A DNA stretch of 64,000 bases from Saccostrea echinata (lineage: Eukaryota): NCBI RefSeq assembly GCF_033153115.1, contig NW_026889774.1, positions 21,266,001 through 21,330,000 on the forward strand, in the 5' to 3' direction. Below, in pieces: positions 3,168 to 64,000 of this stretch. Positions within the stretch are counted from its first letter, which is position 1; the number at the start of each line of letters is the position of its first letter. The notes beneath the pieces were generated by a model. It made no database searches, was not told the origin of the DNA, and worked only from the letters and a program-made list of their open reading frames with translations. The translations under genes and the position numbers were made by a program.

Positions 3168-3189
3168 TTTGTGTATACATGTATAGCCT

Positions 3190-3203: not shown

Positions 3204-3271
3204 ATTTACCTATACGTAATTATATTTTAGGCACATCATGACATAAGTTACCAAATTTAGTATAGATAAAA

Positions 3272-3354
3272 GCCAGTCTGATTAAAAATCATACCTCTAT
3301 TACCTCTGTTTTTTTTTCATATTGATTGTCAATGTATGATTTTAATCAGACTGG
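3272..3354. mobile_element. Tiny hairpin MITE
   Basis: 'ccagtctgattaaaaatcatac' ... 'gtatgattttaatcagactgg', flanked by near-duplicate ataaaag/atgaaag. Confidence 0.55.
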
Positions 3355-7400: not shown

Positions 7401-7944
7401 TAGACAGAGGCACAAGGCAGACAGGCCTAACTAATAGTTTTCAATTTTGCAAGCATAAAAATTAAAAAGTCAATATTCTTCTCAAGAATTACATTGACTA
7501 AATTATCAAAACTTGTTAAGAATAATTAGAATTACTATAAGCAAGCTCACAAATTAATACCCCTGCTGCAATTTTTTTTTTAAAAGTGCCCATTCACCTT
7601 AAACTTGCCAAAATGATCTTGATTAAAAAATAATGACACATCCTTGAGTCATACGTAATCGTTTAGTGAAACATAGGCATCCAATGTTTCTCCAGTAGGA
7701 ATTTACAGACCTGACATATGAATTTTACACTTTTTCTGCCAGTGACTTTGAACTCACCACAATGACTTTGGGTCAAGGTTATGACATACTTTTAACTCAT
7801 GAATAATTATTGTTTGAAGTTTTAACTTCCAGCAAAAATTTTATATTTTTTGCCAGTGTTCTTGAAATTGCCAGAATGACCCTGGTTGAAAGTCATGACA
7901 CACCTTTCAGACATAAGTAATATTTGTGTGAAGTGTTTATTCAT

Positions 7945-8483: not shown

Positions 8484-11400
8484 TTACTGGTTCCTAATCC
8501 ATTTCAAAAAGTCCTTCAATTCTCCATCCGGGTCTCCCTCATAAAGTTCTTTGGCATTTTTTATCTCCTCTGGCCATATAATGACATCCCTACTGAGCTT
8601 GTGATACAGACAGGGTACTGACTTATGACCACTGCTCTCACTGGTGCCTGTATCTGTCTCATATTTATAAGCTATTCTCCCAGAGACCTTTGTTAGCTCC
8701 GCCAGTAGATCAATTTTTTCTGGTTTTGTCTCCAAAGTTTCTTTCAGCTGAGTCTCCAGGTTTGTAATCAGCCACCCTCCTTGTTTATCTCTATTGTAAG
8801 CCTCTTTTCCTGAAAATATAGAATCAATTATTATTTATTAAAAGATATTAAGCAATATCCACACGCTGAATGTTTATTACTTGTATAAACAAATACCTGG
8901 AGCAGAGGCAAACATGACTAAAGCATCATTGACACAAGGTGGCGGATCACTTATTATAGGCTCTGGGAAAAAGAAATCCAGAATCTCTTGTTCAAATCCT
9001 TTACATTCCTCCTTTATTTCATTTATCTGATCAATTGTGAGGCCTTCTGAAAGTAAAGTCTCAAATAATTTGATGGCTATCTCATTGTCTGTTCCCTGTG
9101 CTTCCAGCAGTGAAATGGTTCTATGTTCCATGAGATATTTGTTGTAATCCAAAATATGTCTGTGCAGCACTGCAAGCTTTGCTTTTTTATTCCACTGTAA
9201 AAGAAAGATTTTATCTTGTTTTGAATCCCCTCACAACCATGAACAAAACTCAAATTATGAAACTGAACATCCACAACATTAAACAATGCCAGAATATTAA
9301 ATCAGTAATTAATTATATAATCTTTTTCATTAATATGTATTTTAATTTTAATGTATTTCAAAATTTTACTAATTCTTGTAATGTAATTTCATGGGTGATT
9401 CTTGTTTACAGAAGATTCAATGAACCGATATGTGAACATTATGTGGAAGTTATCGTTCGTAGGGATGTAAATTCCAGGGTTAGGATGATCCACAAAATCC
9501 ACAAACATTGGTCCCCATGAACAATGTTGATTTCACTAAATTTTATACTTGCCTCCTGGATTTGCTTTAATCTGGCCTCTTTATCTTCTTCTGTCTGCTT
9601 CGTTGTACTTCGCTTGGCATCTGTTGTATCCTGATGTGAAGTATCGCTTGAGGCATCTACAGAATCAGGGCTCTTTAGACCAGCCCTAATATCATTTTCT
9701 GCTGTCAAAACATTAACCATCACTCCAGGATCAAAGTTCTCATGTCCATCTAAACCAAATCGACTCCTGCATGACTGAAAAAAAAAATATTTATTGGACT
9801 TTTAACAACTGTTCAAGAAATATATATTTTCTTCACAAAGTTGTTAAATACATGAGAGAATGATAATAATTCTTGCTCAGAAAAATGAGAATTTTATATA
9901 TGCTTCTCTAAAACATAGGTAGTCAGAGATTATGTAGCTCATCTCAATGGATATTATCCTTAAGTAAGGCACAGTCCAGACCTAACAAATAATCTAGTAT
10001 TATCCATCCCTAGATGCAACATTTATGCAAATTTTGTGCAGGAAGGGCTTGCAGTTACTTGGAAATGGACTTGCTCGAAAAACTTTAATATGGTCACTCA
10101 TCCAGAAAATACAGACCAGACCTAGCATCAAAATCAAGTTTGGAAGTCATATTCCTTGATGCATAATCCATACATGTTTGGTTCAGGAAGGCTTTATAAA
10201 TACTTGCAATTGGACCTGCTAAAAAATTAACCTGGTCACTCATCCAGAAAACGAATGTCAGATCCAGGATCCGAAACATGTCCAGTAGTGTACTAGATGC
10301 ATCATAAATCTAAGATTGGTCCAGGTAGGGCTTAAAATTACACTTGAATGAACGTGCTCCAAAATCATTAACCTGGTCACTCCTCCAGAAAATTCAAGCC
10401 AAACCCAGCTTCTGAAGCAAGTCTGGTAGTGTGCATTCTTGGATACATCATCCATGCAAGTTTGGTCCAGATAGGGCTTGAAGTAACACTGAAATCAACC
10501 TGCTCAAAAAACTAAAACCTGGTCACTCATCTGGAAATACAGGTCAAATCCAGCATATGAAGCAAGTCTGGTAGTGTGTATTAAAAGATGTATAATCTAT
10601 GCAGTTTTGGTCACACGAGGCTTACAGTTTATCTAAAATGTTATTTTAAAGCTTACATTATTTTAAAATGAACCATCCAAAAAATGTAGGTCAGATACAG
10701 CTTCTGAAGCAATTCTGATAGTGTGCATCCTTAGATGTATCATCAAATGCAAGTTTGGTCAATGTAGGGGTTATAGTTATTTGAAAATGAGAATGGCTTC
10801 AAAGACTTTAACCTGATTAATAAGACCTGCTCACTCAGAAAATGAAGGTCAGATCCAGCATCTTAATTAAGTTTTGTAGTGTGCATTCTCAGATGTATCA
10901 TCCATGCAAGTTTGGAAATGAGACCTGCTCTAAAAACTTTTGCCTGGTCCAAAAACATAAACCTGCTCAAAAAACATTAAGCTGGTTATTCTTTGGCCGA
11001 AAATTCACCTTCTGAAAACTGACTGGTACAATGAAACATACTAGAAGCATCATCTATGCATCTCTTATCAATATAGGGTGTGAAAGTACTTGCTCCAAAT
11101 ACTTTAACTTGGGATGCCGGCGCTGAAGACATTTAGGGTATTATATAATCTCCCCCAACTTCACTGAGGTAAGTGAAAAACAAAAATCATTCAAAACACA
11201 ATTTATCCTTAAATTTACACAGATTTAAGATTTAAGTATTTAACACTAGACAGAATGCAAGTTTTGGCTTGAAGAAGTGCATGGGAATATATCTTGAATG
11301 AGGGTTATTAAATACATGTGCAGTAAAAACTGTCTTATCCGACACCTGTGAAATTCATTTCACTGTAAATTACGACCTTTATTTTAATTCCATTTTAATA

Positions 11401-14400
11401 ATGGTCTTTACACTGGGTAATCCAACACCCTGCTAATCCCAACACAAAATGTGTCTCCCAGTGCATGTCAGATTAGACAGGTTTCACAGTATACATAATG
11501 GCAAAGCAACAGGATTAAATAAATAAAAATATTACCTGAATAAAAAAAAGACAGGGTTTGCCTTCAAGAGCCGAACAATTGTGTTGGTCAAACATTCTGA
11601 TAATGTCTCTTGTTAAAAGAGACTTTCCATTATGGAAGAACAACTGATGTACCATTTCAGTCCTAGGTTTCTTTTGAACTGTGATCCCAGATGGGTGCTG
11701 CTCATGGGGCTCTTTGTTATCCTCTTTAATAACCATGGGTACTTCCTGTCCGTGTGTACTGATGATTAGTACAAAGAAGCTGGGCTTCAGTTTCTTACAC
11801 CAATTTATTCCTATGTCATGTCAAAAAAAAAAATGAAATATTCACATGTATAATTATGTAAATCATAGTATAATGAAAAAGACTGGAGTAAAGTATCAAT
11901 AAATCTGACTAGTTATAAACTAGATTATAAATAGAAAAAGTAGCAATTACCTTCTTGTAAAAATTGTATTGCTTGTTCAGCAGTTGGATTAAGTTTCTTT
12001 TTCACAAAACATCCCAAGTTTTCAAAACTATCCTTCATCTTCTGAAATTCCTTTGAAGAAGAATGCCTGTTCTCTAAAGACACCTCAGCTTTTTCAGAAT
12101 CGGCATCAAATTCCAATAAACCAATGTAGAGACACAGGCCAGGATTTTTAAGGGGATAACTGTTATCCTCCTCCACTTTGTCATCAGTGTTTGTTCCGGC
12201 GACAAAGCTATGCAATACAAAATGAAAAATTATGCAAGGCCATCTTTAAAAAATTGTTTGTTTGCCCTCTCCTGACCGACTGGCTAAAAATAGTCTGACT
12301 CATTATCTGACTGATTTATCTCCAGGAAATTATATTTTTTTCCTTTTCATTTCGAATTTTTCTCATCCCTTCATATTTTGAAAATTCAGCATTGATGTTG
12401 AAACTTTCTAGGAAATTTTTTTTTCCAACCTACCTACTGACCCAATTTTTTTTTTAACCCTGAATCGGTAGAGGGCAAACAAAAATTATTTTAAAATGGC
12501 CCAGAGTATGATTCTATGCAGCATTGAAGCAGTGGCAGAACCTTCCATGTCTGAATCTATACAGACTTTTTAAACAAGAATAGGAAGAGCTAAAAGATCT
12601 AACAAAGAGGTAAAAACACTGTAATTATCTATAATTTATCCTTCACATTTCTTGAAAATATCTTGGACCAACAATCTTTTAAGGTATAAATTTAATGGCC
12701 AGATCCTGAGATATTCTACATCTAATTAGAAGTTCTATATAAATTGAAAAAGGAACTCATACTTAATGCCAGATTCCTTTGAGATTTCATCTTCATCATT
12801 TGGTTTTGTAGAAAGGTCTGGAGCTTTCCCTTGATTGAAATTTTCCAAAACCTCAACTTTTAGAAACTGTGGTTCTTTGTTCTCTGTTGGAGTCTGAACA
12901 GGGGTAACAGTATCTACTTGGTCTTTTGAGCTACTGGAACAATTTTGATTGTTGAATTTGTCCACAATTTGTTTGGCTAGGGTTTCGATGCTTTCTTGAT
13001 TGTTGTTTTCCATTGTAACAACCATGTGACATGTTTTTGATCCATGTTCAAGGTATTTTTCATCTTCACTTATCACAGTGGCTTTTGAGGTGAAAGAAGG
13101 AAAAGAAGTCAGAAGGTGCTGGTTTATGTTACAAACCACAACCAAAGTGAACTCAATTCCATCATCTTCTTCATCATCATCCAACAGCTCTGAATATGAA
13201 AACAAAATTAGATATGTCATATATGAAAAACATCCTTTAAGGAGGCTGGGGGGTCAACAAATTAACCACAAATTAACCACCAGATTTAACTTAATTTTTT
13301 AGATATGATATCTTAAGCTGTCAACTATCATTTGGCAAAGAAAATTTTCAAAAATTTTAGTTTTAAAAATTGATCATTTTCTATATCTTCATATGGAGCT
13401 CTTCCTCTAAAGGAGATCAATATAGTCTAAAAATGGCCACAACCCCCCAGTCTCTTTAAAAGACAACTTAGGAAAGAATAATCTTAAAAACACCCCTGAA
13501 AAGACAATTTAAGAAAGAATGATCTTAAAAACACTTAAAAATAAGTCTGCCATTTTGAAACAAGAGGCTCAAGGGCCTTTACAGTCACCTGCATATAATA
13601 CAACAATTTAGAGGATCCATAGAAGTATGAAATAAATTGATAGATGAAACTTTATTATCCAAAAGCAAGAAAAATAGGATGATCCACAAAATAATTAGTC
13701 TAGTAACAGTAACAGCTCATAAAGTATAAGTTCCTCTTGCCCCCATTTATCACTATCACCATGTAAACTATAACCTCTCACATCATATTTATATGCAGTT
13801 AGTTGGAGATTTTCAAAGAATAAAAAAATTAACACATTTTCACTATATTACAGGTATCAATAGATCCCACCCTTACACCAGAACATCTGATTCAGGGGCA
13901 ATGAAACTCACATTTCTTTTAAAGAATTATTAGAAAGTTTTAATTTAAATTCATTGTGTGAACCACTGTGGTATAATAATAAAATAAAGATTCAAAATAA
14001 ATATGTATTTTGTAAGCAAATGTTTGATAAAGGGTTCCACATAGTACATGACTTATTCAATATAGAAGGTAATTTTATTAGCTATGAAAGTATCACAAAA
14101 TATTATTTAGTAAAATTACCATTTACCACACATGAGGGTCTGAAGCAAAGTATTTTGAGTGCATGGCCAAATATCAAGCAATTGTCATATAATACTACTG
14201 TCAAACCATATCAACCTGAATTTATAAAAATACTTTGTAAGAACAAAAAAGGATCCAGAAATATTTATGATTATTTAATGTCAAAAATACAGCACAAACC
14301 AATTTGTGAAAACAAATGGGCTACTGATCTAAAGTTAAGAGTCAAATTTCAACTGGAAACATGTTTATGCAAACTTTAAATTGATAACGAAAGACTCGGG

Positions 14401-17400
14401 ACTTATGTGGTTTAATTATAGAATTATTCATAGAATATTAGGTACTAATAAGTACTTATATTTGTCTAAAATTAAAAATTGAACACTTTGTTCAATATGT
14501 AAATTAGAACCAGAATCAATTAAGCATATATTTTTCTACTGTCCACAGGTTTCTATGATTTAATGGCTAGAATTGTCAGATTGGATTTTTCAAAAGTCTG
14601 GTAAAAGAATTGAATTTGATGTGAAAACTGTTATTTTTGGTTATCTGGAAAAAGATCACATGGTAATAAATTTGATAATCCTGTTGGTGAAGAAATACTT
14701 ATTTCAACAATCAAGAAAAAACAATAATATTGTCTTTAATGAAATTTCAAAATATTTAAACAATTACTATACTTTAGAGGAAAAAATGTCAGAAAATACA
14801 TTTTATAAAAATAGATGGTCCAAGTGGAAATGTCTTTTTAATGTGTCTAATAGTAACTCTTAATATTATGAATGAATATGTATTGTAAATCAGGTATTTA
14901 TGTTTATTTGCATGTGTATGTATATATATACATATATATGTATGTGTATGTATCTGTCCAACAGGTATGAGAGTGGGAGAGAGAGGTGTATATGTTTTGC
15001 AATTACATAAATAAAAAAAACCCTCGCATTTCTGGAAGAAACCCCTTGCTCATCATAACTATACACTTAGTTTATTTGTTTTATAACCAGGAGCTTAAAA
15101 GAATATTTTCAAAGAAATTATGCATTTTCACTATATAATCAAAAGAGCCCCCCCCTTTCACCAGAACCCCCGACCATGTGCAGGAATTTCACAATTTTTG
15201 AAGAGGCATCCTTGTTATCATAACCATGCCTTTAGTTTGTTTACATAATACATAGGAGCAGAGAAGAAGATTTTCAAAGAATTAATGCATTTTCACTATA
15301 TTTTCAATAGAGCACCCTTCCAACAACAGGACCCCTGACCCAGGGGCCATGAAATTCACAATTTTGGAAGAGGCATCCTTACTCATCATAACTATATACT
15401 TGGTTTGTTTGTTTGATAGATAGGAGCAGAGAAGATTTTCAAAGAATTAATGCACTTTCATTATATAATCAATAGGTCACCCACATGGCGCAGTGGTTAG
15501 AGCATCTGCTCATGAGTCGCAGAGTAAGGAGCTTATCCTTACGTCGTGGGTTCAAATCCACTGCAGGAAGTGGAGATCGGTCCTTGGGATGAGACCATAT
15601 AAACCCAGGTGCCAACTTGCAGAAGGTGTTGGCACAAAAAAGATCCCTCAATGCTCAATGGCCCTGAGTGCCAAGTATTGGTATAAATTTGCAGCCCTCC
15701 ACTGGCAAGTGGTGGAGTCTCCATATAAGTGAAAAATTCTTGGGTGAGACATTAAAACAAACAAACAAAATATAATCAATAGAGCCAGCCACCCCCCCCC
15801 CCCTTCGCAGAACCCCCTCATCCTGGGGCCAGAAATTTCAAAATTTTAGAAGAGGCACCCTTGCTCATCATAACTATGTACTTAGTTAGTTTGTTTAATA
15901 CACAGGAGCAGAGAAGAAGATTTTCAAAGAAATAAAGCATTTTCACTATATAATCTACATAGCCCCACCCTAGAACCAGAACCCCTGACCCTGGGGCCAT
16001 GAATTTCACAATTTTGGTAGAGGATTCAGTGCTTATTACAATCATGAATGCCAACAGTTTGACTGCTTGTTGTCGGGGAGTAAAGAAGATTTTTAAGGAT
16101 TGCATTAATTTTGGTGGTTTTAGCCCCACCCCTCAGGCACCAGGGGGGCAGAGACCATGAAATTCAGAATTTTTGTCCTCCTTCACTCATACATGCTATA
16201 TGCCAAAAATGTTGAAATACTTTGTATCGCAATTACCTCACAGTTATTCAGGGGCATGAATTACTTGCGTTAGTGACAATCAAATGATTTGAACAATTAG
16301 TATGCCGAAAGTACTATGTATTGCAAAGGGATGAACTTCTAATAGTAGGTTGTCTAATTTGGAATGTTTAAATTTTTTTTTATCAGCTTCCAAAAGTAGC
16401 GATAATCAGAAAGAAATGGTTGAATTTAATTAGAAGAGTTGGCTTACTGAAAAAGTATCAAAAAAAATTAACACATGAGGACTAGGTTCTCTTAAAATTT
16501 ATAAGTGTGGTACAGGGAATGTTCTGCAAGATTCTTTCATATCTGTCCTTTAAAAATCCACAATGCTTATCTCGCATAGCCTGGTTCTCTGTCCCTGTTA
16601 TGCCTCGTATACTCCGCGATACTGCCTTGGCAAGGATGAGCCAGGGAACCAGGCTAGATATCACGTTGTATGGAACAGCACATTGCCCCCAGTTAACAGA
16701 CATTTCCTACCTTCACCGAGAAAGAGTTCCATTAAATAAAGTAATCGCAATATCAAGTATTGGTTCAGCAGTTCCAGAGAAGAAGCTGAAAATGTTCAAA
16801 TGGTAACACACTACGCAAGATGCACAACCCACGACAACGGACAAAAAGGGATAGCAATAGGTCACCTGAGTGACTTAAGTGACCTAAAAAAGCTATGCAA
16901 CTGTGTCTTGCATCTTGCTGAAATGTAATCATTTCAAGGTTATAACAATTCTGGTCTTGAGCATCCTTTGTGTTGAATATAAACTATGACCTTTCACAAT
17001 CCTAGCATTTATATACCATACAGTGGGTTTCTTTAGTGGGTGTAAAATTTGGCATTTTGCTTGCTCAAAGGTATGCCAATAATTTTGGAGAAACTTTTTT
17101 GGCAGACACTCAGTTACATAAGGTTGTAAAAGAAAGGAAGTTCACCTTCTAGATGAGTTTAAGTATGTTGAATTTACGTTTGAATACTGATTTAGACGAG
17201 AGTTTGAGTTAAAATCAACATCAGATGAAAGTGTATTGTTTAACAGCAGACTGATCGAAGTTAATTATGTTCTCCTATTCAGTACTTATACACAACGGTG
17301 CAAATTTAGTGATAATTTTTGCGGGCTACTTAAAACCACTAAAATAAGTTAGCACACTGCTAAATATATGGTATCATTGTCCCAAGAACGTCTCAGCCAT

Positions 17401-47801: not shown

Positions 47802-50138
47802 TTAATGTAAGCTCCTATTATTTATTTCTTATAAAGATCATTTCTCCCCTAGTTTGATGCATTACATTGAAAATATATGTTGACCTCAACTGCTGGCACA
47901 AGTTCGGATATTCTTGTATTCTACAGAGAAATTGCATAATAGTCATTGCATAAATCAGATTCCTTTTTGTTTCAGCATTAAAATTCTTATCTTGCTTGGG
48001 AAAAAATATATAAAAATTTCATTACGCAAGCATGACAAGAAATCTAATGTGACAATTTGTTAATTGAAATCACGAGATAAAATTATGCTTTTATAATTCG
48101 ACGTTTCCGTGTTACTCAGAATGCTTGCATTTGATTTATTTTTGTGTCAACGCAATGAAGCTTTTATTTTTGTACTTTTTCCCCTAGAGCTTCCCAGTTG
48201 ATTCTTAAGACTCGCTGCATATCCGGTTCATTTAAGAAAAATATATATTGAAATTTGATCAAATCAATCATATATATCTATTTTTATGAAAACATGACTA
48301 TTCTAGTATGTATTCATTGAAGTCGAAACATTGATAAAACGCCATAGATCTTTTTATTGACGATAAATCATAAAAAAGGAATAATTCATTTCATCTAATA
48401 AATCATTTATCTATACACTAGTCGACAAAAGTTATTAAAAAGATCATCATCTGTCTTTACAATATGAGTGCAAATTTTGATGATGTAAACTTTTTCTTTC
48501 AATGAACTCCTTTTCAATTTCAGATTCTTACTCTTGAATAACACACTGATAAGTTCAGACGAAAACCAAAAAAAAAAAGTGAAACAAATCGATTTTTTGA
48601 TACTAGTATATAGACCACTAGTTGTTTTTCCTTCGAACATAATACGTTCTTTTTATAATTCAATTTGTTAATTACTTTATAATACAACAAATGATCTCTG
48701 CTTACTCTTTGTTTCAAGGATGACCAACAAGTTTGAAAGTTGCATTTTAAATTGTCATTAAAGAAATACCTTGTTTTTTTCTGTTTTCTGCTTCCGTGTA
48801 AACTTTTCAAATTATGCAACTGTCTCGTTTCAGAGAGCTTTGACAAATTAATTTTGGTTTCTTTAATTATTGCATAAAAATTAATTTTAAGACAAGAATA
48901 TGGCGTTAATACAACTTATTTCGGCCATTTTGTACAGTGAAGGGTAAGTTTTGCCTTACGTTTCTTAGATTAACAACATATTTTCACGGTTACCGTAGTT
49001 TAAAAGGCACGTGACTTAGATATATATAATGATTAATAATGTTTCATTTCGGTTTACATTTTGTTTAAATACTAAACTGACGAAATCTAAAAAAAGTAGA
49101 TTGTAACCTTAAGCCTAGAATTCTTTAATGAAAATTCAAGAATTTCAGACTATAATAAATCTTGCTGTGACCCATATTAACATCACTGATGTGTTAAGTA
49201 ATATATCTAAAATATAATGAATGGTGATTATCGAGGTATTTAGTAAAACATGAAGCCTTATTTAACAATTCAGAAAGCGCGATTAGCCTTGTTCACTTTA
49301 ACCTTGAAGTTTATTTTGTTTTTTGAAATCTTAAATGTTGCATGCATTCTTTGTATTTGTTCAAGGGACATACACGTTTAAATTAATATATATTTACTGC
49401 TGTGGTAGCTTGAATAGGTTAAATCTGTATGATCCATCTCTATAAATACATTTTTTTGTAACTGTAAACAACAGTAATCTGGCAACGAGATAAAAATTCA
49501 ACAAGTGCTGTCCAACATTTTGCACGTAAGCCAGGATTTCAATATCTAAATATAATAAATATATGCAAAATCTTAGTAAATATTTGATTTCATTGTTCTG
49601 TTTACATGAAATATATGTAGAAATAAGAATATTTTAAAAATCTCGTAGTAGTATATGATGAAATTGAATATTTTACTACTTTTGTGGAGAGATGAAGCAC
49701 AATTTATTGATGATATCAAAAGAATACCTCTTTTTAGAGATTCTGGTATAGATCTACTTGAACTTTTACTGCCAAACGCCTGAATTGATGTATATTTCAA
49801 ATATTAACTTTATGTATGAAAACAAACATGCTTGTCTACCAATGTTAATCTATAGTAAATTAACTGATGTTAACAGTTGTAATCAGTTAAGGTAAAAACC
49901 TTGTAAGTTGTAAGAACTTGTGTTTTAACTTTTCTTTATGTTTTTTTTTGAATGGAAAATGTTCAAATCAAAACAATATCATAATACATATCTTCATATT
50001 CGTGAACTCTTCACATTGATTAGCAATTAAAGCAATGTAGATTTTTTCAACTTTAAACGCTTAGTACTTTGTTTTTCAGATCAACCAACGAAACAAAAAG
50101 GAACAAAAGCTGTCTCATAATTTCCAAAGAACACAGAA

Positions 50139-53100
50139 ATGTCTCTACGTATATTCCTAGGAATTTTAGTATTTATTCCATTTTCTCAAGGTAACTACCT
50201 TAAGTAATATATGACCTTTATCTTTGCATATATTTTGTAAAATTTACTTGGAATACAAATCTATATTTTCTTCTTAGCCAAACTATTGTGATCCTGTAAA
50301 AATGCAATATTTAATTATCTCTTTACACCTATAAAATGTTTTTGAACTTTTAGAAAATTATATTGTATAAAGATGAAAATATTCAGCTCATGTAATATGG
50401 AGATAACTAACAGTAATCAACCTCAAAAGTCCATTGAATCAAAACAAATCAGGAGCAGAGCAAACACGGACCTCCAAAACACCAGTGGTGGGATCATGTG
50501 CCACGGAAGAATGAGCATCTCCTGTCGACCGATCACACCCTCCGTGTGCTCATTGTCATGATCGGGCAAACGGAAAAATCCGCAGACAATTCAGTGTTAA
50601 AATAATGCCTAATGAAAAAACGTCAGTCAGCACTCGGCTTAATGATAGATTGTATTTGCTGACAACAACGTCACTGTATCGACCATAGAACTTGCGAAAT
50701 GATGACTCTAGACGAGACTGTTGATATCCTTGTTTCATCAACTTGTTTGTCAATAACTTGCCTCGTTTTAGAAGTTGTTCGTACGTGGAGCATGCTCTTG
50801 CGTATCGAAGTAACTGGGAGATATACATGTATTTCATTTTAACATAGACTATCTGCCATTCTACCTCCAGAAAAACATGTTCAAAGATGAACATAAATCA
50901 CTTTAGATTTGCTTACTTATTTGGGGAGAAGGATGTCACTAAATAAACGCATAAGAAACAAACAACTTTATTAGTCCCCTACCGGTGAAACCGGAGGGGA
51001 CTATAGGTTTCCTCTGAGTCTGTCCGTCCGTCTGTCTGTCTGTCCGTCTGTCTGTCTGTCGGTCTGCCCCACTTGGTTTTCCGCATCTTTTTCCTAAACG
51101 CTTGCAGATATTGAGCTGATTTTTGGTATGTGAGTGTATCTTGATGAGTTACAGATCAAGTTTGCATTTCGTTCCGCTTCATTGATTTTTGACGGAATTA
51201 CGGCCTTTTCAATTTTTACGGGTTTTCCGCAATTTTCTTCTAAACGCTTGTAGATATTGAGCTGATTTTTGGAATGTGGCTTTACCTTGATTAGTTATAG
51301 ATCAAGTTTGCATTTCGTCCCGCTTCATTAATTTTTGACGGAATTATGGCATTTTCAATTCTTAACGGGAACCAGATTACACTTGCTGGTAGGGGACTTG
51401 TATTGCTAATGCAATACTCTCAGAATGCTTGTTCAGTGAGCAAGGCGTTATGAATAGCATTTGCTCTGCTGACATATTTTCCACGATGAGCTATCGCGTA
51501 TGATGGAAAATATGCCAACAGAGCGTTTGCTATTCATAAAGCCATGATCACAGAATATCGTTATTAATTATATTAGCATTTTATGGTTTGATAAGAATGA
51601 AAGTGGAAAGGCTGACTGTGCTTTGTTCACAGCTGCATGTTAGGCATAGGCTAAAACATGAATAAAAGTAATGCATGAAAATACTAGTAAATCAGAAGTG
51701 ACCATTACACTTTAATTCCATCTGCATCATATACAATAAACACGATACTTCTAAACACAAATCTCGTGATAAATGAGAAAGATAGAGATTGGCGCCCCCA
51801 AATATCTAAAATCAAACTATTGTATGACCATATGAAGAAGAACATTACAATCTAAAATTTTATCTTTTAGGCCATCTTTAAATTTTTTTGTTTGCCCTCT
51901 CCCGACCGCCTGACTAAAAACTTATTTAACCCCAGGAAACGATATTTTTTTTCTTTTTATTCCTGAATTCTCTCATCCTGTCAATAAGTATTTTGAACTT
52001 TTCTGGAAAAAATTTAACCATCTACCTACCGACCCAATGATTTTACCCTGAGTCGGAAGAGGGCAAACAAACATTAGTTTAAAGATGGTCTTAACACGAA
52101 TTAAGAGCATATTTAAATGTCAGATCTAGTCAATGTATGCCTTTTGATAATAAACTTTCATAAGATTTTCATTTTTATTATTTACCAACATGATTTTATA
52201 ATGCTTATCTCGAAAATTATTTTAAAAATCAGGACAATGGCAAACCGGTGGTGGAACTAACGGTAATCCAGGAGGTGGTGGAGGAGGCCAGGACGTCTTG
52301 AACGGCCAATCAGCACCGGCTCAGAGGCCAAGCTTAAGACAACAGCAGCAACAGCAACTACAACAACTTCCTGGGTTCCCCCAACAACTACAACAAACAG
52401 CTGGGTTCCCACAACAACTACAACAAACGCCTGGATTCCCACAACAACTACAACAAACGCCTGGGTTCACTCAACAACTACCTGGTCTCCCACAGAATTT
52501 TCAAACATTACCCCAACAAAACAACTTTTTAGGTGAGAGAGGACAAATGTTACTTCTGACCAACGGAGCTGCAAGTATTATGATAGCTAATAGGGATCGC
52601 CTCCCCCGGGAAAGAATCCGGAGGGTAGGGGTCCCAGTGTCTCTTATTCGTGCTTTTGCTATTCAGCCTGAAGTTTTGCTTCCACGCTCGCTTGCAGCTA
52701 ATGCACAACCTACTAATCAAACACCAACAACAGCACGAGGTATGTTTTTTTTTACTACAGCTTTATATTTAGCCATATAAATTTTATGCTATATAACATA
52801 TATGTATATCAATATCTTAACATTATCTTATATCAAGATTTAATTATTATAAAAGACGGAATGTGCATAGCTTGCCTTTCTGGGTTGCTTTAATGCTTTT
52901 GATATTGTAACGCTTCTACTATGCCCTTTGTGAATTTTGAATGGAAAACATTAGATGCCAGAGTATCCAAACTGTTCAAACATTCGACATTTTCTGTCAG
53001 TCCTGTGGGTAATGGGTGATATTAAATTTTTCACTATGCACAATATCAAATATTTAACCACCGGTATATTGCACACATATACACATATAAATATGAAATA

Positions 53101-56100
53101 TCCCAGAATTAGCACGTTGTTGCCAAGCTTTTTCCTATTGCTGAGTCTAAAATTTTTTTATATTTAATTTGAAAGTACATGTAATCACCAAGAAAAGCTT
53201 TCAAAATATTTTTGTAGACTGTTTGTTAATGTAAATATATATATGTTTACATAACAGCTTGATCGTTGGGCGAGCGCAGTTATTATCCCCTCCTCTCAGG
53301 AAGCCCCTGAGCTTTTTGCAATGAAATTTTATATCACAACTCCCTATATGACGTAAAGAAGACCCCCATTGATTGTGAGGTCAAAAGGTCAAAGGTCAAG
53401 GTCAGAAATTTTTAATTGCAAAAATGATTTCCAGATGACAATTTTAGTTCTCCTTCTCTTTTTCAATGAAGTTATATATCACATGGTAACTCCTAGTGAC
53501 TAAAAAAAACCCTTTTGATTTTGAGGTCAAGAGGTCAAGGTCAAAAATTCATATCTTGTATAAAATGTTTTTCTGGTATTAAGTCTAGTACTTTTGGAGG
53601 TTCTGCAATTAAAGAAGATGGGTGAACAAGGCGTGCAGAATGCCTATAGCTTCAGATATTAATAAAATCATATTCAATTTGTGAATTAAGTATTTAAAAT
53701 AAAGTTCTCATTATTGAAATTTATGAAATTATGATTAACAAAACTTTTCTGAGAAAAAAGATCTCGGAAAAATTATTCTTTTATTAAAAAAAATAAAATG
53801 GTATTCGTGAGATTCGAACCCCTATCAATAAAAACCCGGAGTATCATATTGTTTTGAGACTAACACGCTAACCACTTCGCCACGCAGCTACTGACGAATA
53901 GTGGCATTTAAATCATGTTTGTGATATGACCTTGACTTAATGGACTTCAAGTATTTCTCGGAAAGATACGAATGCTTTGTCATAAAAGTGTACTTTTAAG
54001 GTATAGTGGGTCTTTGCTCCATGTTTTTGTAAACCAAAAAATGTATATTTTTATGCAAACTTTTAGGATCAACTTTCAAAAAAATGGAGCGAAGACCCAC
54101 TCACATCGAAAAATTTTGTTAAAGTGTGAGAAAATGATCCTTTTTGTCCTCTTTAGTGTGTGTATGCTATTTCGTAGGCAAATAATTTCAGTCTTTGTGA
54201 GATTTTTGCAAATTGTAGAGATTTAGCATAAAATAAACTTTAATGTTAGATGAAATATCAAAGAAAATTTTTATATAATTGAGATTTTATTTTCCACTTC
54301 ATGTTTGTCGCACTATAGGCACTTCGCCCGCCTTGTTCACCCATCTTCTTTTATACCTTTATTCAAAAGACTTTAAAAAGGCTTCCTATTGATTCTGAGG
54401 CCAAACGGTCAAAAACCCAAATCAGAAATTTGTATATTGCATACATACATTTCAGGTGATAACTTAAGTTGTCTGCAAGCTTTTGTAATGAAACTTAAGA
54501 CATGAATTTCTTTCATTTAAAACAACTCTAAATGACTTTAAGGCAAAAAGCTGAAATATCAAGGTTGTCCTTTTTTCTCCGTCTGCATATTTCTAACTTC
54601 TTCCATCTTCCTCTTTTCCTTTAATTAAGCAGGGAAACAATTCTCTGAATTAGGTTTCATTTATTTCAGTTGATTTAAATGAATTTAAATAAATAAGTGC
54701 TTAGTAGAACTCATAGCTTAGCTCATGTTACTTTGTTAGGTAAAAGTTCCGTGGTTTGTGTGTGTGTGTGTGTGTGTGTTTAGATTCATAACTTTCTTAT
54801 CAATATTCACACGTTTACTATGAACTAAACATTTTCTCACATTTTAAAGACACCCCAAAACTCGAAAGGTTTAAATTTCTTGGACTTTTCCGACAAATCG
54901 GGACACCTCCCCCCAGAAAAATTTGATTTGATTTGAAGTTTTTTATGACAGAAAGATTATAATCCTATATTTTCTTACAAACCTTTTAAGTAAGTTGTTT
55001 CTATGATGTAAGGACTAAAACATTTTTCATATGGACGCAATATATATACTTTTCGATTTCGACTCGAATTCACCCTGTTCACACACTATTCTACATGCTT
55101 CGCGCCTCTCGCTGCGCTCGCTTTTAATTTAAATCAATCTGGTTAAAATTATATCCCTAAGCGATATATGTGAGCGGATCAAAGGATATGATTTTAATAA
55201 AATTAAATATAAATATGTTTTCCTCCAAGGAACATATTTGAAACATGAGGTTTTAATTTGTTGACGGTGTGTAAAGCTCGCTGCGCTCGCTCTAATCATA
55301 ATTATGCTTTTATTTAATTACGACAGGTGGAGGAAACCCATTCCAAAGACCATTTTTCCCCCCACCTAGGGGACGTAAGTGTCATTCGATAGCTTCAGTT
55401 CATCAATAGTAGCATGAAAACACGTTTCATTGATAAGATTATTCAGTAATTGTATAATTTCGGCCATAACAAATAAGCCTCTTTTCAGTTTTGTATTATA
55501 TAAGTATTTCACATTTTTTTCGTTAAGAAAGGTCAAATTAATTTTTAAGTAGCATACTTTAATTAAAAAAAAATCATAATTCGATAAATATATCAAATAC
55601 CTTACTTTTATCTCATTCATGAAGCATTTCCCCCATTTGGGCAACCTGGACAAATTCCATTTGTGCCATTTAGAGGTATGAAAGATCATCTTTTTTCATA
55701 TTTTCACGGATCAGTTTTGTATTTTTGAATGATAAATATGTTTCGTTTATCAAAGACATGCATTGAATTTCAGAAAACTTAGTTCATTCTTCCAAATAAC
55801 AATAATTATCTTTCACAGGAGGCTTTCCTCCATTTTTGCCATTCCCAGGTATTTGTGATCACACGAGCACCTTTGTATTAAACCTTAAAAGCACCATAGA
55901 ATATTACAAACCATATATTAGTCACTTTCTATACACCATCTGTATTATATCTAGTGTGACTGAAGCTGAAGTACGAGTTTAAAGATTAGAATGTTCCTTA
56001 GATTGAATGGTGTTTCTATCTGGTGAACACAATTGTGTACTGTATAGAGATTTAAATTCGCAGGTGTATAATTTTGACAATTTTCCCTATGGCACTTAAT

Positions 56101-59100
56101 TCAGGGTGTCTGAACTTACACAAACTTCAAGTTTGTTTTGTATTTATGATAATTTTTAAACATAATAAATTATTTTCTGTTTCCTGAATATGTAGATTTG
56201 TAAGGAGCACTTATGAAGCGAAAATTAATCCTGCGAGTTATTCTTTTCTTATACAGTATGCATTTTAAACTTATGTACTGGAAAATCACATATTTTCGTG
56301 GGGTCAAATTTTCATGGTTAAAGAAAAAAATCCTGGTTTGTGGGGATTTGAAGTTTAATATGTTTTACATTTCACTGAGGTCATGAATTCGTGGGTCTCT
56401 TCATACCAAAAAAAACAAACAAACAAACAAACAAACAAACAAAAAACAAAAAACAAAAAAAAACAAAAAAAAAACAAGCCAACCAAGAACATAAATCCCA
56501 CGAAAATTGTGATTTCACAGAATATATATAAATATATATATATTGGTGGTGTCAATATATATCATATCGGATTCATTTCAAACAATTTAACTTTATGTAA
56601 CCAGAATGCCTTTAACGGTTGAAGTTTTTCAACTTTTAAAAAGGATATATAGTTTTTAATATTTAGAAAATCAATACTTAGATATAGAATTTAGTATCTA
56701 GTGAAGAGCCATTATAATTAAATAAAAGATGTATATAAATGGATAATTTTGAGATGAAGAAAGCAATGGTAATGACAACCACCTCTGGTTCATGCTATTC
56801 GGACTTTTTTTAATACTACAAGTTAAAAGGAATACTTTTTTGAGAGGGGACTTTGTTAACAGGTCAACTATTTTTAAATTAAAGGTGAAAATTAAAAAAA
56901 AAACGATAACAAACAAACAAAAACAAACCTAAGAATTCACGTGGACAATTGTTTATTTTTTGATTTCCAGAATTATTTTTTTTTTAATTTGTTTTAAGAA
57001 AAAGAAAATAAAAGGCATTAAATTAGTACATAAAGTTTTTTTTTTTTTGTGAAAAAGAAAAAGACCTGTTGATACATTAAAAAACCTCACTGCTTTATTA
57101 TATGTTGCACTTCCAGTTTCGATAAGCTTTTTATATTAGATAACGAAGTATTCAAAGTAAAAAAATTCTTTTTTTGTATGTGTGTAACATTTAAATATTT
57201 AAAAGTATCCAGCTTTTTACCAGTAGGCATACAAAACTTTCTTTGACATACAAAATGCTTTTAGTTATTGTCAACCCAATAAAAAGTTGATATATCTGTA
57301 ATGCACTGCGGCATGGAGTGTACAGCTGTAAAGATTTATCCATATATTATTTGTTTTGTAAGAGATAAAGATAAAACTTGGGATTATGCCAATTATATTC
57401 CCAGTTTTCTGTTTTCAGGCAGACCACCCTTCCTCCCACAATTAGGCGGTAAGTAAAATCTAGTATATGAAGCATGGAGATATTAATTATGTGTAAAAAA
57501 AAATACAAAGAAATAGCATATTACTTAAGACAAGTTATACCTTGTTTTAAATATAGTTTTTAATTACAATATATATATAATTAAGTCTTTTAACATTTAT
57601 TAAAAAACATTTTCATTTACATAGAGTTCCAAATATCATTGAATGCAGAACTTTCAATTATGTCACATTTAATTATGTATAGTATTTCCTCTTAAACTAA
57701 TCTAAATTCTCTAAATGATATATATGAACTTTAAATTTCAAATAAACATTGTTACTATGAATGCTTCTGTCAGGAGATTTTAATGATTTAAATTTCAGGA
57801 AGGCCAGGATTTCCGGGATCTTTTACAGGTAAGGAGATTATTTTCATAACTTAAAATGCCAATTAAAACAATTCTATAATGCCCATTAAACTGAATTCTG
57901 GCTCTTATAGAGATGAAACTTATTTTCGTATAAATTTAGATAATTTTGCAGGGCAACAATTTCAATTCCAACAACCACAGTTTTTGAATGGAGCTGGAGG
58001 TACATGTACGAATCTTATAGAGAAAGCTTTTCTTCTGATAATCATTGCATCCAATTCAATAAAAACAAATTATTGATTATTATTTTTATAAAATGCATTG
58101 CTCCTTTTAAAACACACTCCTTTGATAGTTATGTTTCTTGCAAAGAAAAATTTGTCATACGATTGACTAAAAAACTTTCAAAATAGTAAATTGATTAGAA
58201 TTGAAAGAATTCAGAATGTTAAATGCCATTTACGGGAACATTTGTGTTAAAAGTGCAATTGTACATAAGGGTTCTCAGTTTTAGTATGATAAAAATCGTA
58301 AACTATATGATTGGGTCATAGTGTAAAGGCGAAACATAATGTGTAATATCATGTTTTGGAATTTTCTGAAAAAAAAAATCATTAGTAACATGAGTAAATC
58401 ATTTAGTTTTTATACTCACCTAAATATTCGAATAATTCATTTTATTATGGATTGTATTACTATGTTAGAATACTCGTCCTTGTAGGACAGGGAGGGCAAG
58501 GACAAGATGGACTTGGTAAGACTATAAACATTTAAATTTTATTTATTTATTATGATTTGATAATTTTGTTTTTACTGTTTACTGATGGATGCTTTAATTG
58601 AACATTAATCAGTCATTTATTACTAAATTTTTCTAGCTTTTGATTCGATACCTCCGTTATCACTTCCTATAGGTATGAATATACATGGATTGAATGTACT
58701 TTATCACTTTTGTTTTAGTACTTTCACCTGTTATTCAGCACTTAGATTTTTTCCCATACATGTACTTATATAAAATGCTTGTTTTATTTATCGAATGATC
58801 ACAACATCTCTTTTTTTCTTTAATAAATATGTTCTACCACTTAAACTATGAATAAAGATAAAACAAATATTTGCTACATGTATGTGATATCAGAACTTGA
58901 GGAAAAAGCATTGAAAAAAGAGTGTCATTTGATTGAATAGGAACAAGCAGTTATATATTTAGTGTAGTATATATTACAAAAACACTTGCTTGATAGATCT
59001 CAAAATCTTATATTTATTTCACAACTATACAGTTTATTTTTCTATGAAACATACCTTTGTCATCGCATATTTTAATAAAAATGTAAATGCATGAAGGGGC

Positions 59101-59333
59101 TTACATATTCGACATTCATAGAAAAGTCTAGGAATCTTTAAAACAATACCAGTTCAGCTAGCTTAAATGTATAATGAAAAATATACATATTTGATATCGC
59201 ATAAGAATACATTGCATTGTATCAGTTTATCAATATTTTTATTAAATTATCTTTTGTCGTTTGGCTTCCCTTATGGTGATGGGTGCATTTTTTAATGTTA
59301 CCCAAAGCTACGCAACACCTCTTAACAATGTCT

Positions 59334-59412
<79 letters not shown>

Positions 59413-62400
59413 CTGTATATTTCTTTAAAATGAAAATGAGTAAGCTTGTACTTTTGTATAAAGGTTTACAGAAATGTGTTTGTAAATAACAATTTTGCTT
59501 TCTTTCTTTGTTTTAATAATATATATTCACTGCACTATATTTATTTGGTCCAGGCACACAAGGACAGTTCCCAGGAAACGGTAAGTTACTAATATACAAT
59601 TTTTCATATATGCAACAGATTTCTATCAAATTGGTGTTCGGCTTTTGACGTTTTTGAAAGTGTACTTTTATCCATTCTATCCTTTTTCGAAAAGAAAATT
59701 GGACATTCTAAATTGTCTGATCGAAGAATATTGTCCTATTACAGTCCCATCTACTTTCAAGACTCCCAAAGTCACATTTTACTGAAGGGGGTACCCCATC
59801 CACCCGTCCATCTGCTTCCTTCGTGTCTGCTTTTGCGGTCTTTTCCATTCTTAATTCTTAATTGCATACATTTAAATGTTTTAGTATTTAAAGTCTTTTT
59901 CACGGTGTTGGAGGTACTGTGTAATAGTGACAGAGGTGAAATGTTTTAAAAATTACAAATAATTAGCTTTAAAAATAATAAATCTGCTATTCTAGCTCAA
60001 CAACAAAGAAACTTTCCTCAGTTTAATCGAGGTACAATGCACCTGCTAATCAGTGCATAAATGTATGTGCTAAAAATCTTGTAAAAATGCTTGTTTGATT
60101 TTTTTTCTGTCTTATGTTCTAAATAGTACATTTAAGAGAGAGCTTTATTTGAATGATATTCACAGGGTTATTATAAAATTATTAGGACAAAAAGATTTAA
60201 GACAATATAATACCCAAAGCACGGTTTTAAAAATTACAAATAATTAACCTTAAAAGTAATAAATTTGTTATTCTAGCTCAACAAGGAAACTTTCCTCAGT
60301 TTAATCAAGGTACAATGCACCTGCTAATCAGTGCATAAATGTTTGTGCTAAAAATCTTGTGAAAATGCTTGTTTGATTATATCTGTTTTATGTTCTATAT
60401 TTTAAGAGAACGCTTCATTTGGGTAATATTCACAGGGTAATCATAAAATTATTAGGGAAAAAATTAAGACAGAGTGTAATATCCAAAGCACGATTTTAAA
60501 ATTATAAATAATTAGCTTTAAAAGTATAAGTTTGCTATTCTAGCTCAACAACAAGGAAACTTTCCTCAGTTAAATCAAGGTACAATGCACCTGCTAATCA
60601 GTGCATAAATGTATGTACTAAAAAATCTTGTAAAAATGCTTGTTTTGATTTTTTTCTGTCTTATGTTCTAAATAGTAAGAGAGAGCTTTATTTGAATGAT
60701 ATTCACAGGGTTATTATAAAATTATTAGGACAAAAAGATTTAAGACAATATTAATATAATACCCAAAGCACGGTTTTAAAAATTACAAATAATTAACCTT
60801 AAAAGTAATAAATTTGTTATTCTAGCTCAACAAGGAAACTTTCCTCAGTTTAATCAAGGTACAATGCACCTGCTAATCAGTGCATAAATGTATGTGCTAA
60901 AAATCTTGTGAAAATACTTGTTTGATTATATCTGTTTTATGTTCTATATTTTAAGAGAACGCTTCATTTGGATGATATCCACAGGGTTATCATAAAATTA
61001 TTAGGGAAAAAATTAAGACAGAGTGTAATATCCAAAGCACGGTTTTAAAAATTATGAATAATTAACTTTAAAAGAAATAAATTTGCTATTCTAGCTCAAC
61101 AACAAAGAAACTTTCCTCAGTTTAATCAAGGTACAATGCACCTGCCAATCAGTGTATAAATGTATGTGCGAAAAATCCTGCGAAAATGCTTGTTTGATTA
61201 TATCTGTTTTATGTTCTAAATGGTAAGAGAAAGCTTCATTTGGATGATATCCACAGGGTTATTATAAAATTATTAGGACAAAAAGATTTAAGACAGAGTG
61301 TAATACCCAAAGCATATAAAACAAATCCTTAAAACTTTTCTTCAGAACTTTTGTTGGTGATATCACCTTAGTATTTGTAATGCCTTTTTGTGAATCATAT
61401 ACATGTATAATGATATGTTTATTTCAACGAGTTCAATAAAATTTTTAACACCTTCGGTTTTTGAGGATGAAATCAAACATTTGTTTGTCTGTTATTGATG
61501 ATTATTAACAAAATCATAACTTTACTCCTTTCAACGGTAAATGATAATTTGAAATACACTAGGGTGTACGCCAAATTATATCGAATCAGGATTAAGATCA
61601 TTTTACAATTATACAATTATTGAGGATTGTTAATTACAGAGGATCTAAATAATTTCAAGAAATTAGAATAAAAATTATCACTTTTAAAAAGAGTAGGTCT
61701 ATCAAAAACAAAACAACAGATTTTTTTACCAGTTGTCAACTGAGTACTGTAAATGAAACAATATTTTTCTATCTAAATGCTCTTTGCACAATATATTGAT
61801 TATATTTGAAAATTCAAAAGTCTGCTGTGAAAACTTTTTAAGATTTATGTCATTTCTTCTCAATGTATTAGTCAATGTATGACTGAAAAATAGTTCATTT
61901 GTTCTAGCTCAACTTCAAGGAAATCCTCCGCAGTTTAATCAAGGTACAATGCACCCGCGAATCATTGTATACATGTTAGTGGCAACATGCGTGTGAAAAT
62001 GCTTGTATTGGATAATATTCACAGTGTAGTTAGTGTTTTTGATTATTTTCGGTAGGTTGTTGATAGTATAACACCTCAATAAAAGTTCCTTTTTTAAAAT
62101 GTTTTAAAAGAAATTTTTATCCTATGTTAATTCCAGTGATTTCAAAATGCTTAAAGACATTTCAATTCATAATCTAGAATAATCAAATTTTTATCACAAT
62201 TAATTATATTTAGATGATAACAATTAACCAGATAAGAAAAGTAAATAATTATAAATATCTAACTTATACAATTTGATGTTACACCTAACGACATAATTTC
62301 AATTAGGATATTATATTATTGCTACGAAGAAATACAAGTAAAATCAGAATTGTGAAGATTATTCACAAGATTTTAAGTATAAGATTTTAAGTATAAGTAC

Positions 62401-62888
62401 TGATGTGCAATTGACAATGAATACTGTAAATAAAACACAATTTCTGCCCAAATACATTTTGCGCAATGCTTTTAGGAATTTTCATGTCAGAATATATTTT
62501 CATTTTCGTAAACATTAAGAAGAAAGCTATTATATTTTAGCATTCAAATTTCTGCTGCAAAAATATTTGTGCAATTCATTTTTCAGTTTTTTTCATTGTA
62601 AAGCTGAAAGATGTTATTCATTTGCTATTCTAGCTCAACAACAAGGAAACTTTCCTCCATTTAGTCAAGGTACGATGCACCTACTAATCGATGCTTACAT
62701 GTAATGTCAAAATTTCTCTGGAAACACTTGTATTGTTAACTTTTGTCTCAAGACAAGAACAAAATCAGGAAGATTCAATTCGATAATAGAATGTATTCAG
62801 AATTTAGAAAGAATTGACCTATAAGATAAGTATTATTAATTTGTAATTCTAGCTCAACAACCAGGAAACTTTCCTCCATTTAGTCAAG
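50139..62888 (+). CDS. Secreted Gln/Gly/Pro/Phe/Asn-rich low-complexity protein encoded by a micro-exon array (3' end not identified in the window)
   Basis: Signal-peptide exon 50139-50190 (MSLRIFLGILVFIPFSQ G), then exon 52233-52739 (GQWQTGGG...(PGFPQQLQQT)n...). Phase 1-1 AG/GT-bounded micro-exons follow at 55327-55374, 55625-55675, 55819-55848, 57419-57448, 57799-57828, 57940-57999, 58486-58515, 58637-58672, 59554-59580, 59996-60031, 60277-60309, 60544-60579, 60826-60858, 61095-61130, 61908-61943, 62634-62669 and 62853-62888. All are multiples of 3, stop-free and of consistent composition. Confidence 0.85.
50390..50825 (-). mobile_element. Penelope-like retroelement 3' fragment
   Basis: 'YISQLLRYARACSTYEQLLKRGKLLTNKLMKQGYQQSRLESSFRKFYGRY', closely related to the 38.8-39.4 kb copy. 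Confidence 0.8.
50969..51432 (+). mobile_element. Short Helentron/HINE-like element
   Basis: 5' hairpin 'agtcccctaccggtgaaaccggaggggact', (gtct/gtcc)n, two ~148-bp internal repeats, and 3' 'ggtaggggact...gtattgctaatgcaatac...cttgtt'. Confidence 0.75.
51870..52092. mobile_element. MITE (family of 12237-12502)
   Basis: 'ggccatctttaaatttttttgtttgccctctcccgac' ... 'gtcggaagagggcaaacaaacattagtttaaagatggtc'. Confidence 0.75.
53612..54350. mobile_element. Non-autonomous TIR DNA transposon (Kolobok-like) containing a tRNA-like segment
   Basis: 22-bp perfect TIR AAGAAGATGGGTGAACAAGGCG / CGCCTTGTTCACCCATCTTCTT, with ttaa/ttta flanks. Confidence 0.75.
59341..59409. repeat. (TA)n microsatellite
   Basis: Pure TA run. 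Confidence 0.95.
59943..61315 (+). repeat. ~270-280-bp tandem repeat, each unit = intron + one micro-exon; dimeric higher-order period ~549 bp
   Basis: Exon starts at 59996, 60277, 60544, 60826 and 61095 with alternating 36/33-nt exons; diverged copies at 61908, 62634 and 62853. Confidence 0.9.
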
Positions 62889-64000
62889 GTACAATGCACC
62901 TACTAATCAATACATACATGCAAAATTCTTTGGAAACACTTGTAATGATTATTTCTGTTGCACGTTCTGAACAAAATCGGGAAGTTTCAAGATTAAAGAA
63001 TGAATTCGAATTTCAAAAGAATTAACCTATAGGAGAGAACAATTTCCAAAAGTCTCATTAAAAATATCAGAGTTCATTAGTTATTTTGTACAGTGTATAT
63101 GTTTAAATATTTCAAATTTGCATTATGAACCTAAGATTTATTATTTGCAATTTTAAAATTAGTAAATGTCTTTAAAAATAAGATTTAAACAACAGTTATT
63201 CCCATTAAAGCACGGATTTTTGCATGAATTTTTATCCTAGAATTCTTCAGGACTCCTAAATAAATATGTTTTGATAGGTTATGATCTAACGAGTATATAA
63301 ATAGGATTATTTTAGGGGCATCCCTGCCCTGGGGTGGACATTTACAAACTTACAAAAATAAGGAAACCTGTTTTTGACAACCTGTTTCATGCTTTTTTTA
63401 GTCAGAATAGCTCAGATGGTTATAATGCTGACATTTGAAACCGCAGAAACGTTTTTAGAGTTGTGGTTCGAATCCACCTGACCAAACTTTTCACAGTTTT
63501 TAATTCTGGTCTTTTCAAGCACTATTTTAATTTTTTAAATAAATATGTGTGCATTTTCCTTCAATTATATATTTTTAATGTATGTTTATACGTGATAAAA
63601 AGGACAATCAAAAGAAAGAAAATCATAAATTCTATGTAACTTGCATGCACTCAAGCTGGAATATACACCAATATTATTATTCTCATTTATTCCAAGCTCT
63701 CTGATTGGCTTAAACTTGATCACATGACCAGATATATAACAGGATATAGACTTGTGTTACTATTTAAAGATTCTGAAATGCAAATCGACTTATGTTTCTA
63801 AAAATGGAGATAATCTTATGTAAAACAATAATAGTCCTGACTTCACAATAGCTAATACAGTGTATGGCTTAATTGATGTTTCTCAAAAAAAAAAAAATAT
63901 ATATATACTTCAATTCTTATTTTTAATTGTGATGTTTAGTAATCATTGGTAAGACCTAACATTATGCCTTGAATAATAAGGACCTATTTCATATTAAAAC

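Follow-up and report, generated by a model that had tools for sequence, protein, structure and literature searches.

On the plus strand of Saccostrea echinata contig NW_026889774.1 lies a gene built from many small, symmetric exons, of which its transcripts leave out different combinations. Its coding part begins in the 64,000-nt stretch of DNA analysed here (contig positions 21,266,001 to 21,330,000; the window), and positions are given in window numbering, which is continued past 64000 for the downstream stretches (L003-L005). We are highly confident that both the spliced architecture and the exon skipping are real. The longest model, which uses the first of two alternative 3′ ends (end A), has 37 coding exons over 33 kb and encodes up to 903 aa. 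All of its 35 internal coding exons are multiples of 3; 23 are no longer than 36 nt, 33 no longer than 66 nt, and the remaining two are much larger, at 300 and 915 nt. The exons of up to 36 nt make up 28% of the coding sequence, and those of up to 66 nt 46%. The gene extends about 25 kb beyond the window, with 17 further internal exons (one of 915 nt) and both 3′ ends, all predicted from splice signals, open frame and the approximately 40% identity to orthologs; of these, R11 and the start of D1 alone have RNA backing (exon names as in Table 1).

An earlier note, made from the letters of the window, had proposed a signal peptide followed by at least 17 small exons. All 17 that it listed exist: each is bordered by AG and GT, has a length divisible by 3 and is in phase 1-1, so that the frame is kept on both gain and loss of an exon. 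The lengths proposed were right for 16 of them; the supposed 60-nt exon (E8) is 48 nt long in all four sequencing runs described below, and its acceptor at 57952 scores 9.4, against -0.3 for the alternative at 57940 that gives the 60-nt version. The 300-nt E2, absent from the earlier list, stands between the signal peptide exon and the small exons. The terminal exon sought past the window is now predicted, and an alternative end B as well.

A scan combining splice sites and composition found 17 candidate donors between 50190 and 64000 on the plus strand, 16 of them symmetric phase 1. The control regions gave 4 donors in 50 kb upstream (none symmetric), 5 in 73 kb downstream (1 symmetric) and 34 in 163 kb of minus strand (10 symmetric), a lenient control, given that the composition filter was derived from these very exons. 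No second copy of the gene was found in the 923-Mb genome searched with exon 2 and with the C-terminal exon. A candidate paralog on contig C28 was rejected; its 73% DNA match covered 112 nt of Gln repeat, and the protein model had no tblastn match in the 20 kb there.

The small exons show traces of duplication. Intron flanks are common to all eleven repeat exons (QQQGNFPQFNQ type), and R1-R5 form a tandem array of a 272-bp exon-plus-intron unit in 5 copies with 86% matches. In a decayed twelfth copy AA replaces the acceptor AG (L003 about 7503-7545; window numbering about 70503). The E9/E9b and D1/D1b pairs are an older duplicate, intron included. These comparisons indicate that tandem duplication adds exons and that decay of splice sites removes them.

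Exon joints in contigs of public runs

Skipping was read from contigs of four public runs (X1-X4), presumed to be RNA, which represent at most three samples from two studies; X1 and X3 come from one sample. Seven runs are listed as carrying the gene, all of them presumed RNA from a guess and none on record as RNA. Such contigs yield joints, not levels or whole isoforms. Joints taken from a first contig survey are among those listed there, and a second survey listed all joints. Where a joint links repeat copies and has sides of 21 letters, it cannot be placed on one copy and was not counted as a skip.

The contigs join E1 (ending at 50190) to E2 (52233-52532) and then, by exon start, to 55327, 55625, 55819, 57419, 57799, 57952, 58486 and 59554, followed by repeat exons. 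The introns are gone at GT..AG borders, which shows that the contigs derive from spliced transcripts. The full chain from E1 to the repeats was seen in X2 and portions of it in the other three runs. Contigs of X2 and X4 also carry 56 and 158 letters, respectively, before 50078, so one or more non-coding first exons probably precede 50080.

Three regions of the gene vary among these paths. E6 was entered from three exons, namely E5 (X2, X3), E4 (X1) and E2 (X4), the E4-E6 and E2-E6 joints being read from loose contig ends that match those exon ends. X3 probably has the E2-E6 joint too, as a contig alignment there starts at 57412, just as at this joint in X4. E9 was joined to E10 across E9b in all four runs, and no inclusion of E9b was seen in their contigs; an E9b-like peptide was found in proteins of Ostrea edulis and Magallana gigas. 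E10 was followed directly by D1 in X1, by an R2/R4-type exon in X2 and by an R3/R7/R10-type exon in X3 and X4. The E10-D1 joint lies inside one 1586-nt contig and skips all 11 repeats. D1 in turn was entered from E10 (X1), from an R3-identical exon (X4) and from R11 (X2, X3). Thus X1 and X3, which share a sample, differ in having no repeat exon vs several. Contig pieces matched R3, R5, R6 and R7 letter for letter, and R2 and R4 are identical in sequence; among the pieces listed none covers R1 or R8, and R1 alone is joined across.

Together with the isoform models of the orthologs, the contigs show several exon combinations and not one constitutive isoform, and they bear out the proposal of combinatorial skipping that preserves the frame. 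The further claim that any subset of exons can be skipped goes beyond what the contigs show, as E6-E9 and E10 were present in every path seen. Variation in the contig paths was seen only at E3-E5, at the FDSIPP-type exon and within the repeat array.

Oyster orthologs and the predicted protein

O. edulis and M. gigas each have an ortholog with about 40% identity over the whole model, which shares the signal peptide, the cassette types and the C-terminal domain with the Saccostrea gene. RefSeq names them 'collagen alpha-1(IV) chain-like' in O. edulis (XP_056010904, 905, 914, 915) and 'collagen alpha-5(IV) chain' in M. gigas (XP_065933102-146 series). We consider type IV collagen an automatic mislabel, because the longest Gly-X-Y run is 4-5 triplets and there is neither a Pfam collagen or NC1 domain nor any Cys.

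Isoform model numbers reach X32 in O. edulis, where 4 were seen, and X50 in M. gigas, where the set comprised 33 proteins in two clusters. The 16 M. gigas models examined all have distinct cassette patterns, and they vary only within a 140-column stretch that holds six cassettes of 12-13 aa and one duplicated block of 50 aa. Of these cassettes, two are similar to the Saccostrea repeat exons (QQPWNIPRFNQ) and another two to E9b/D1b (VDTLPPFSFLPT). The same two cassette types are thus toggled in the ortholog models, and they are more aromatic and poorer in Gly than the sequence between them (M. gigas: aromatic residues 13/73 in cassettes and 4/113 in intervening sequence; Gly 4/73 and 45/113). 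Among the three genomes compared, the 11-copy expansion of the repeat cassette was seen only in Saccostrea. The two 3′ ends are also mirrored, RefSeq models X21 and X22 of O. edulis differing exactly in the choice between an A-type and a B-type end. With end B the protein gains a poly-Pro exon and a domain of 35 aa; identity in this domain is 60-70% for both orthologs.

Three protein searches for homologs outside oysters gave only Ostrea and Magallana proteins, the first two scoring the top 8000 candidates only. A profile of the C-terminal domain run against 1.84 billion representatives had 6 matches, none credible beyond oysters: the M. gigas protein itself, four unnamed fragments all but identical to it over the domain, and one repetitive Vibrio protein that was judged spurious. 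The ESM Atlas gave no usable match, a result that speaks for neither novelty nor absence. In the open literature covered, which excludes subscription papers, no paper dealt with the gene or with oyster micro-exon genes, and on that coverage the gene is apparently undescribed.

The protein is predicted to be secreted and to lack a membrane anchor. Its N-terminal hydrophobic core reaches KD9 3.39, and the signal peptide, ending SQG-QW, is kept in both orthologs; a hydropathy check, made without a dedicated predictor, gave a hydrophobic N-terminus and no later hydrophobic stretch in all three species. The mature form with end A (form A) consists of G 18.6, Q 17.1, P 13.4, N 10.4, L 8.9 and F 8.2%, and contains no Glu, Lys, His, Cys or Tyr. 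This composition is kept across species despite the low identity (G 19-22, P 13-15, N 10-12, F 5.5-8%), Cys and Tyr are again absent, and Lys stays at 0-0.4% in the orthologs. Pfam gave no family, and no lectin or other binding domain, in two ortholog proteins and three pieces of the Saccostrea gene scanned. The protein is predicted to be disordered, with no folded domain except a short helix in one of the two C-termini. For the domain of end B, AlphaFold2 with a 3-sequence alignment returned one helix at residues 18-43 of a 47-aa query whose last 12 residues are intron read-through (mean predicted local distance difference test score 77, predicted template modelling score 0.41); this helix is amphipathic by hydrophobic moment.

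Possible role of the spliced cassettes

We give an even chance to the interpretation that this predicted secreted protein self-assembles into extracellular matrix and that splicing tunes the assembly. Under it the Phe/Trp-bearing cassettes would act as stickers between Gly/Gln spacers, and how readily the protein condenses or gels would depend on how many of them it carries (0 up to 11 repeat exons), much as exon usage is proposed to modulate tropoelastin. The weakest step is the last, in which the matrix would be the mantle-secreted organic framework of the shell; this hydrophobic framework is to us the likeliest site, ahead of mucus or cement, at a little less than an even chance. The absence of Tyr, Lys and Cys makes a DOPA (3,4-dihydroxyphenylalanine) glue or a lysine-cross-linked elastomer unlikely, and the few acidic residues make a crystal-binding acidic shell protein unlikely. 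DOPA adhesive proteins are Tyr/Lys-rich, and the oyster protein does not fit them, having 0 Tyr in all three species. In its most extended form the proposal is a tentative one: oysters may have independently evolved a splicing code in the style of elastin and the micro-exon genes (MEGs) of schistosomes, in which a conserved aromatic sticker cassette, multiplied to as many as 11 copies by exon duplication, and a switchable C-terminal helix, both dialled by tissue, set matrix assembly without Lys, Cys or Tyr cross-links.

Several points weigh against the matrix interpretation. The secreted-matrix role is read from sequence. The RNA status of the four runs is a guess, and they cover at most three samples and two studies; their contigs show joints only, so whole isoforms are not seen, and assignment among the near-identical repeat exons hangs on 1-3 letters. 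The RefSeq XP_ isoforms are predicted models that may be chained from short reads; in that pipeline single skips are better supported than their combinations. In Saccostrea the skipped exons are depleted in Gly (15/169 vs 16/62, P = 0.002) and their aromatic enrichment is not significant (30/169 vs 7/62, P = 0.31), and duplicated modules inflate all of these P-values. Charge is not conserved either, the pI ranging from 4.6 to 11.3 over orthologs and forms. Finally, form A has no Lys, Cys or Tyr for cross-linking and the protein has few acidic residues for calcium binding.

Shell proteome supplements were also consulted. No peptide motif match was found in the supplements of PMC10543319, PMC5854119 and PMC9456362; the first of these tabulates IDs and names, not sequences, and the result does not speak against presence in shell. 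Digestion with trypsin would yield only 4-13 peptides of 7-35 aa from this protein. An entry of PMC10543319 Table S10, CNI_014465-RB, is a loose fit (signal peptide, 79.5 kDa, pI 8.4, Gln/Asn-rich-like name, foliated and chalky layers) that is not matchable without its sequence.

Molluscan repetitive shell matrix proteins are, like the predicted oyster protein, secreted, lineage-restricted and low-complexity. So are the P/Q-rich SCPP enamel proteins such as amelogenin, which share with the oyster gene small symmetric exons and alternative splicing but have phase 0 introns. Tropoelastin, which coacervates and recoils elastically, is, by analogy of design, a closer architectural counterpart than the MEGs, not a relative by family. 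Every tropoelastin intron is phase 1:1, and cassette-like alternative splicing is proposed to modulate its assembly and matrix properties (PMC12554196, available portion). The oyster protein is likewise predicted to be secreted, low-complexity, disordered and Gly/Pro-rich, with all introns phase 1:1 and cassette splicing. Unlike tropoelastin, in which hydrophobic and Lys cross-linking domains alternate, form A has 0 Lys and hence no Lys cross-linking domains, and Gln, Asn and Phe take the place of Val and Ala; the oyster gene has two large exons and two alternative C-termini, and no homology was found.

The earlier note had likened the gene to schistosome MEGs, and this holds for design but not for membership. 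In the portions available of the papers describing them, MEGs encode a signal peptide and small symmetric exons whose skipping gives a pool of similar secreted proteins, and are flatworm-restricted and code for small proteins (PMC4350168, PMC4015677, bioRxiv 2023.06.21.545858), with up to 75% of the coding sequence in micro-exons (PMC4350168, PMC4015677). The oyster gene has the predicted signal peptide, the small symmetric exons and isoforms that arise by skipping. It differs in having only 28% of its coding sequence in exons of up to 36 nt, in encoding a 900-aa protein, in being apparently single copy and in occurring in oysters, and no homology was found. The SmPoMucs, in which the available text reports 0-20 tandem copies of a 27-bp exon (PMC4015677), also resemble it in varying tandem copies of one small exon by splicing. 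The oyster repeat is instead Gln/Phe/Asn, at a single locus and with no evidence of trans-splicing. The SmPoMuc repeat is a Ser/Thr glycosylation unit.

An unlikely explanation, yet one to be weighed seriously, is that the splicing is neutral: a disordered secreted filler would tolerate the gain and loss of small exons, and the isoforms would be equivalent in their job. The recent tandem duplication and the dead copy without its AG agree with this, as do the differences in cassette number among genera and the modest identity of the orthologs. It does not account for the same two cassette types varying in two genera while neighbouring Gly-rich exons are retained, nor for the sharp difference between X1 and X3, which fits regulation.

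It is more improbable that the protein works at a host-microbe interface, as a variable constituent of surface or mucus that splicing diversifies like the MEGs and SmPoMucs. That its design of signal peptide, small symmetric exons and skipping is the same (PMC4350168, PMC4015677), and that the 11-copy array recalls the SmPoMuc exon copies (PMC4015677), speaks for this in the portions of those papers available; yet one copy was found in the genome and not a family, the variants differ in the number of near-identical modules and not in new epitopes, and Ser+Thr at about 13% is low for a mucin, with no binding domain in Pfam.

Least probable of all is that the skipping is largely an artefact, produced where animals differ in genomic exon number and where near-identical repeats collapse in assembly: the repeats are indeed near-identical (R2/R4 fully), the contigs are assemblies, 9 of 24 X2 records fit two places, the RefSeq models are predictions and the runs compared are all presumed RNA, but the skips of E3-E5 and E9b fall in unique sequence and join exon to exon exactly, both ways into E6 (from E2 and from E5) appear to occur in X3, X1 has E10 joined to D1 within a single contig, and six separate short cassettes vary in the M. 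gigas models.

If splicing does tune matrix assembly, the gene bears on how matrix proteins diversify. Gene duplication and domain shuffling are the usual explanations for the diversity of molluscan matrix proteins; this gene allows a direct test of a third route, in which combinatorial micro-exon splicing tunes one disordered protein. Isoforms with 0 up to 11 near-identical cassettes would offer a natural dose series in which to study sticker-and-spacer assembly, and one of use in designing protein materials. The design itself is known from elastin and MEGs; new here are an oyster gene whose micro-exons are skipped in several combinations and whose cassette types are conserved, and the occurrence of a MEG-like design in a free-living mollusc. 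The M. gigas gene, with RefSeq isoforms numbered up to 50, had been hidden behind a wrong collagen label.

Exon coordinates and neighbouring features

Table 1. Exons and related features of the oyster gene, in window numbering.
Feature	Position	Strand	Description
E1	50080..50190	+	ATG 50139, predicted signal peptide, phase-1 donor, acceptor AG; spliced to 52233 in 4/4 runs
E2	52233..52532	+	300 nt, Gly/Gln-rich, internal GFPQQLQQT repeats, not a micro-exon; joined to 55327 in X1, X2, X3
E2, possible longer form	to donor 52739	+	507 nt, in frame; single X1 contig, depth 3.95, crosses the donor
E3	55327..55374	+	48 nt; present in X1, X2, X3; skipped in X4 (E2-E6 joint)
E4	55625..55675	+	51 nt; skippable (contig joints)
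E5	55819..55848	+	30 nt; present in X2, X3; skipped in X1 (E4-E6 joint) and X4
E6	57419..57448	+	30 nt; in every path seen
E7	57799..57828	+	30 nt; in every path seen
E8	57952..57999	+	48 nt, 4/4 runs; joint 57820-57944, 4 letters fit both sides
E9	58486..58515	+	30-nt Gly/Gln spacer; 4/4 runs
E9b	58637..58672	+	36-nt cassette, FDSIPPLSLPI; bypassed in 4/4 runs
E10	59554..59580	+	27 nt; 4/4 runs
Repeat exons R1-R8	59996..62888	+	QQQGNFPQFNQ type; 36, 33, 36, 33, 36, 36, 36, 36 nt
R1-R8 starts	59996, 60277, 60544, 60826, 61095, 61908, 62634, 62853	+	AG/GT, phase 1-1
Intron leaving window	62889..64000	+	gene continues downstream
R9	64091-64123	+	predicted
R10	68934-68969	+	predicted
R11	69645-69680	+	predicted, with RNA backing
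D1, D1b, D2-D13 (14 exons)	71592 to 83050	+	predicted; phase 1-1, 18-66 nt plus one of 915 nt; RNA only for D1 start
915-nt exon within D series	79537-80451	+	predicted
Terminal exon A	83147-83346	+	predicted
Alternative 3′ end B	84334-84396, 85567-85674, 88991-89014	+	predicted; domain conserved in both orthologs

The in-frame 207-nt extension of exon 2 (52533-52739) runs to a strong second donor and is Arg-rich and non-repetitive; its last 42 nt (52698-52739) could be a separate exon. Long (TA)n microsatellites stand just upstream of E10 (59332-59418) and just upstream of the 18-nt exon D3 (L004 909-998). High-copy repeats occupy 50400-51440 in intron 1 and 53250-54400 in intron 2, where many contigs of other transcripts match. 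An array of an approximately 178-bp repeat was seen by eye in the R9-R10 intron (L003 about 1320-3800), and a repeat array is also present at L005 3230-4960; these arrays are probably mobile-element satellites.

Elsewhere in the window, exons of a caspase-like gene lie on the minus strand at 8484-13253, where three open frames match Pfam Peptidase_C14 with E-values of 5e-4 to 4e-3, below the curated cut-off (three of the eight frames scanned). Two open frames on the plus strand at 13891-14863 adjoin this gene and have no Pfam match; they read like the C-terminal part of a long interspersed nuclear element (LINE) reverse transcriptase.

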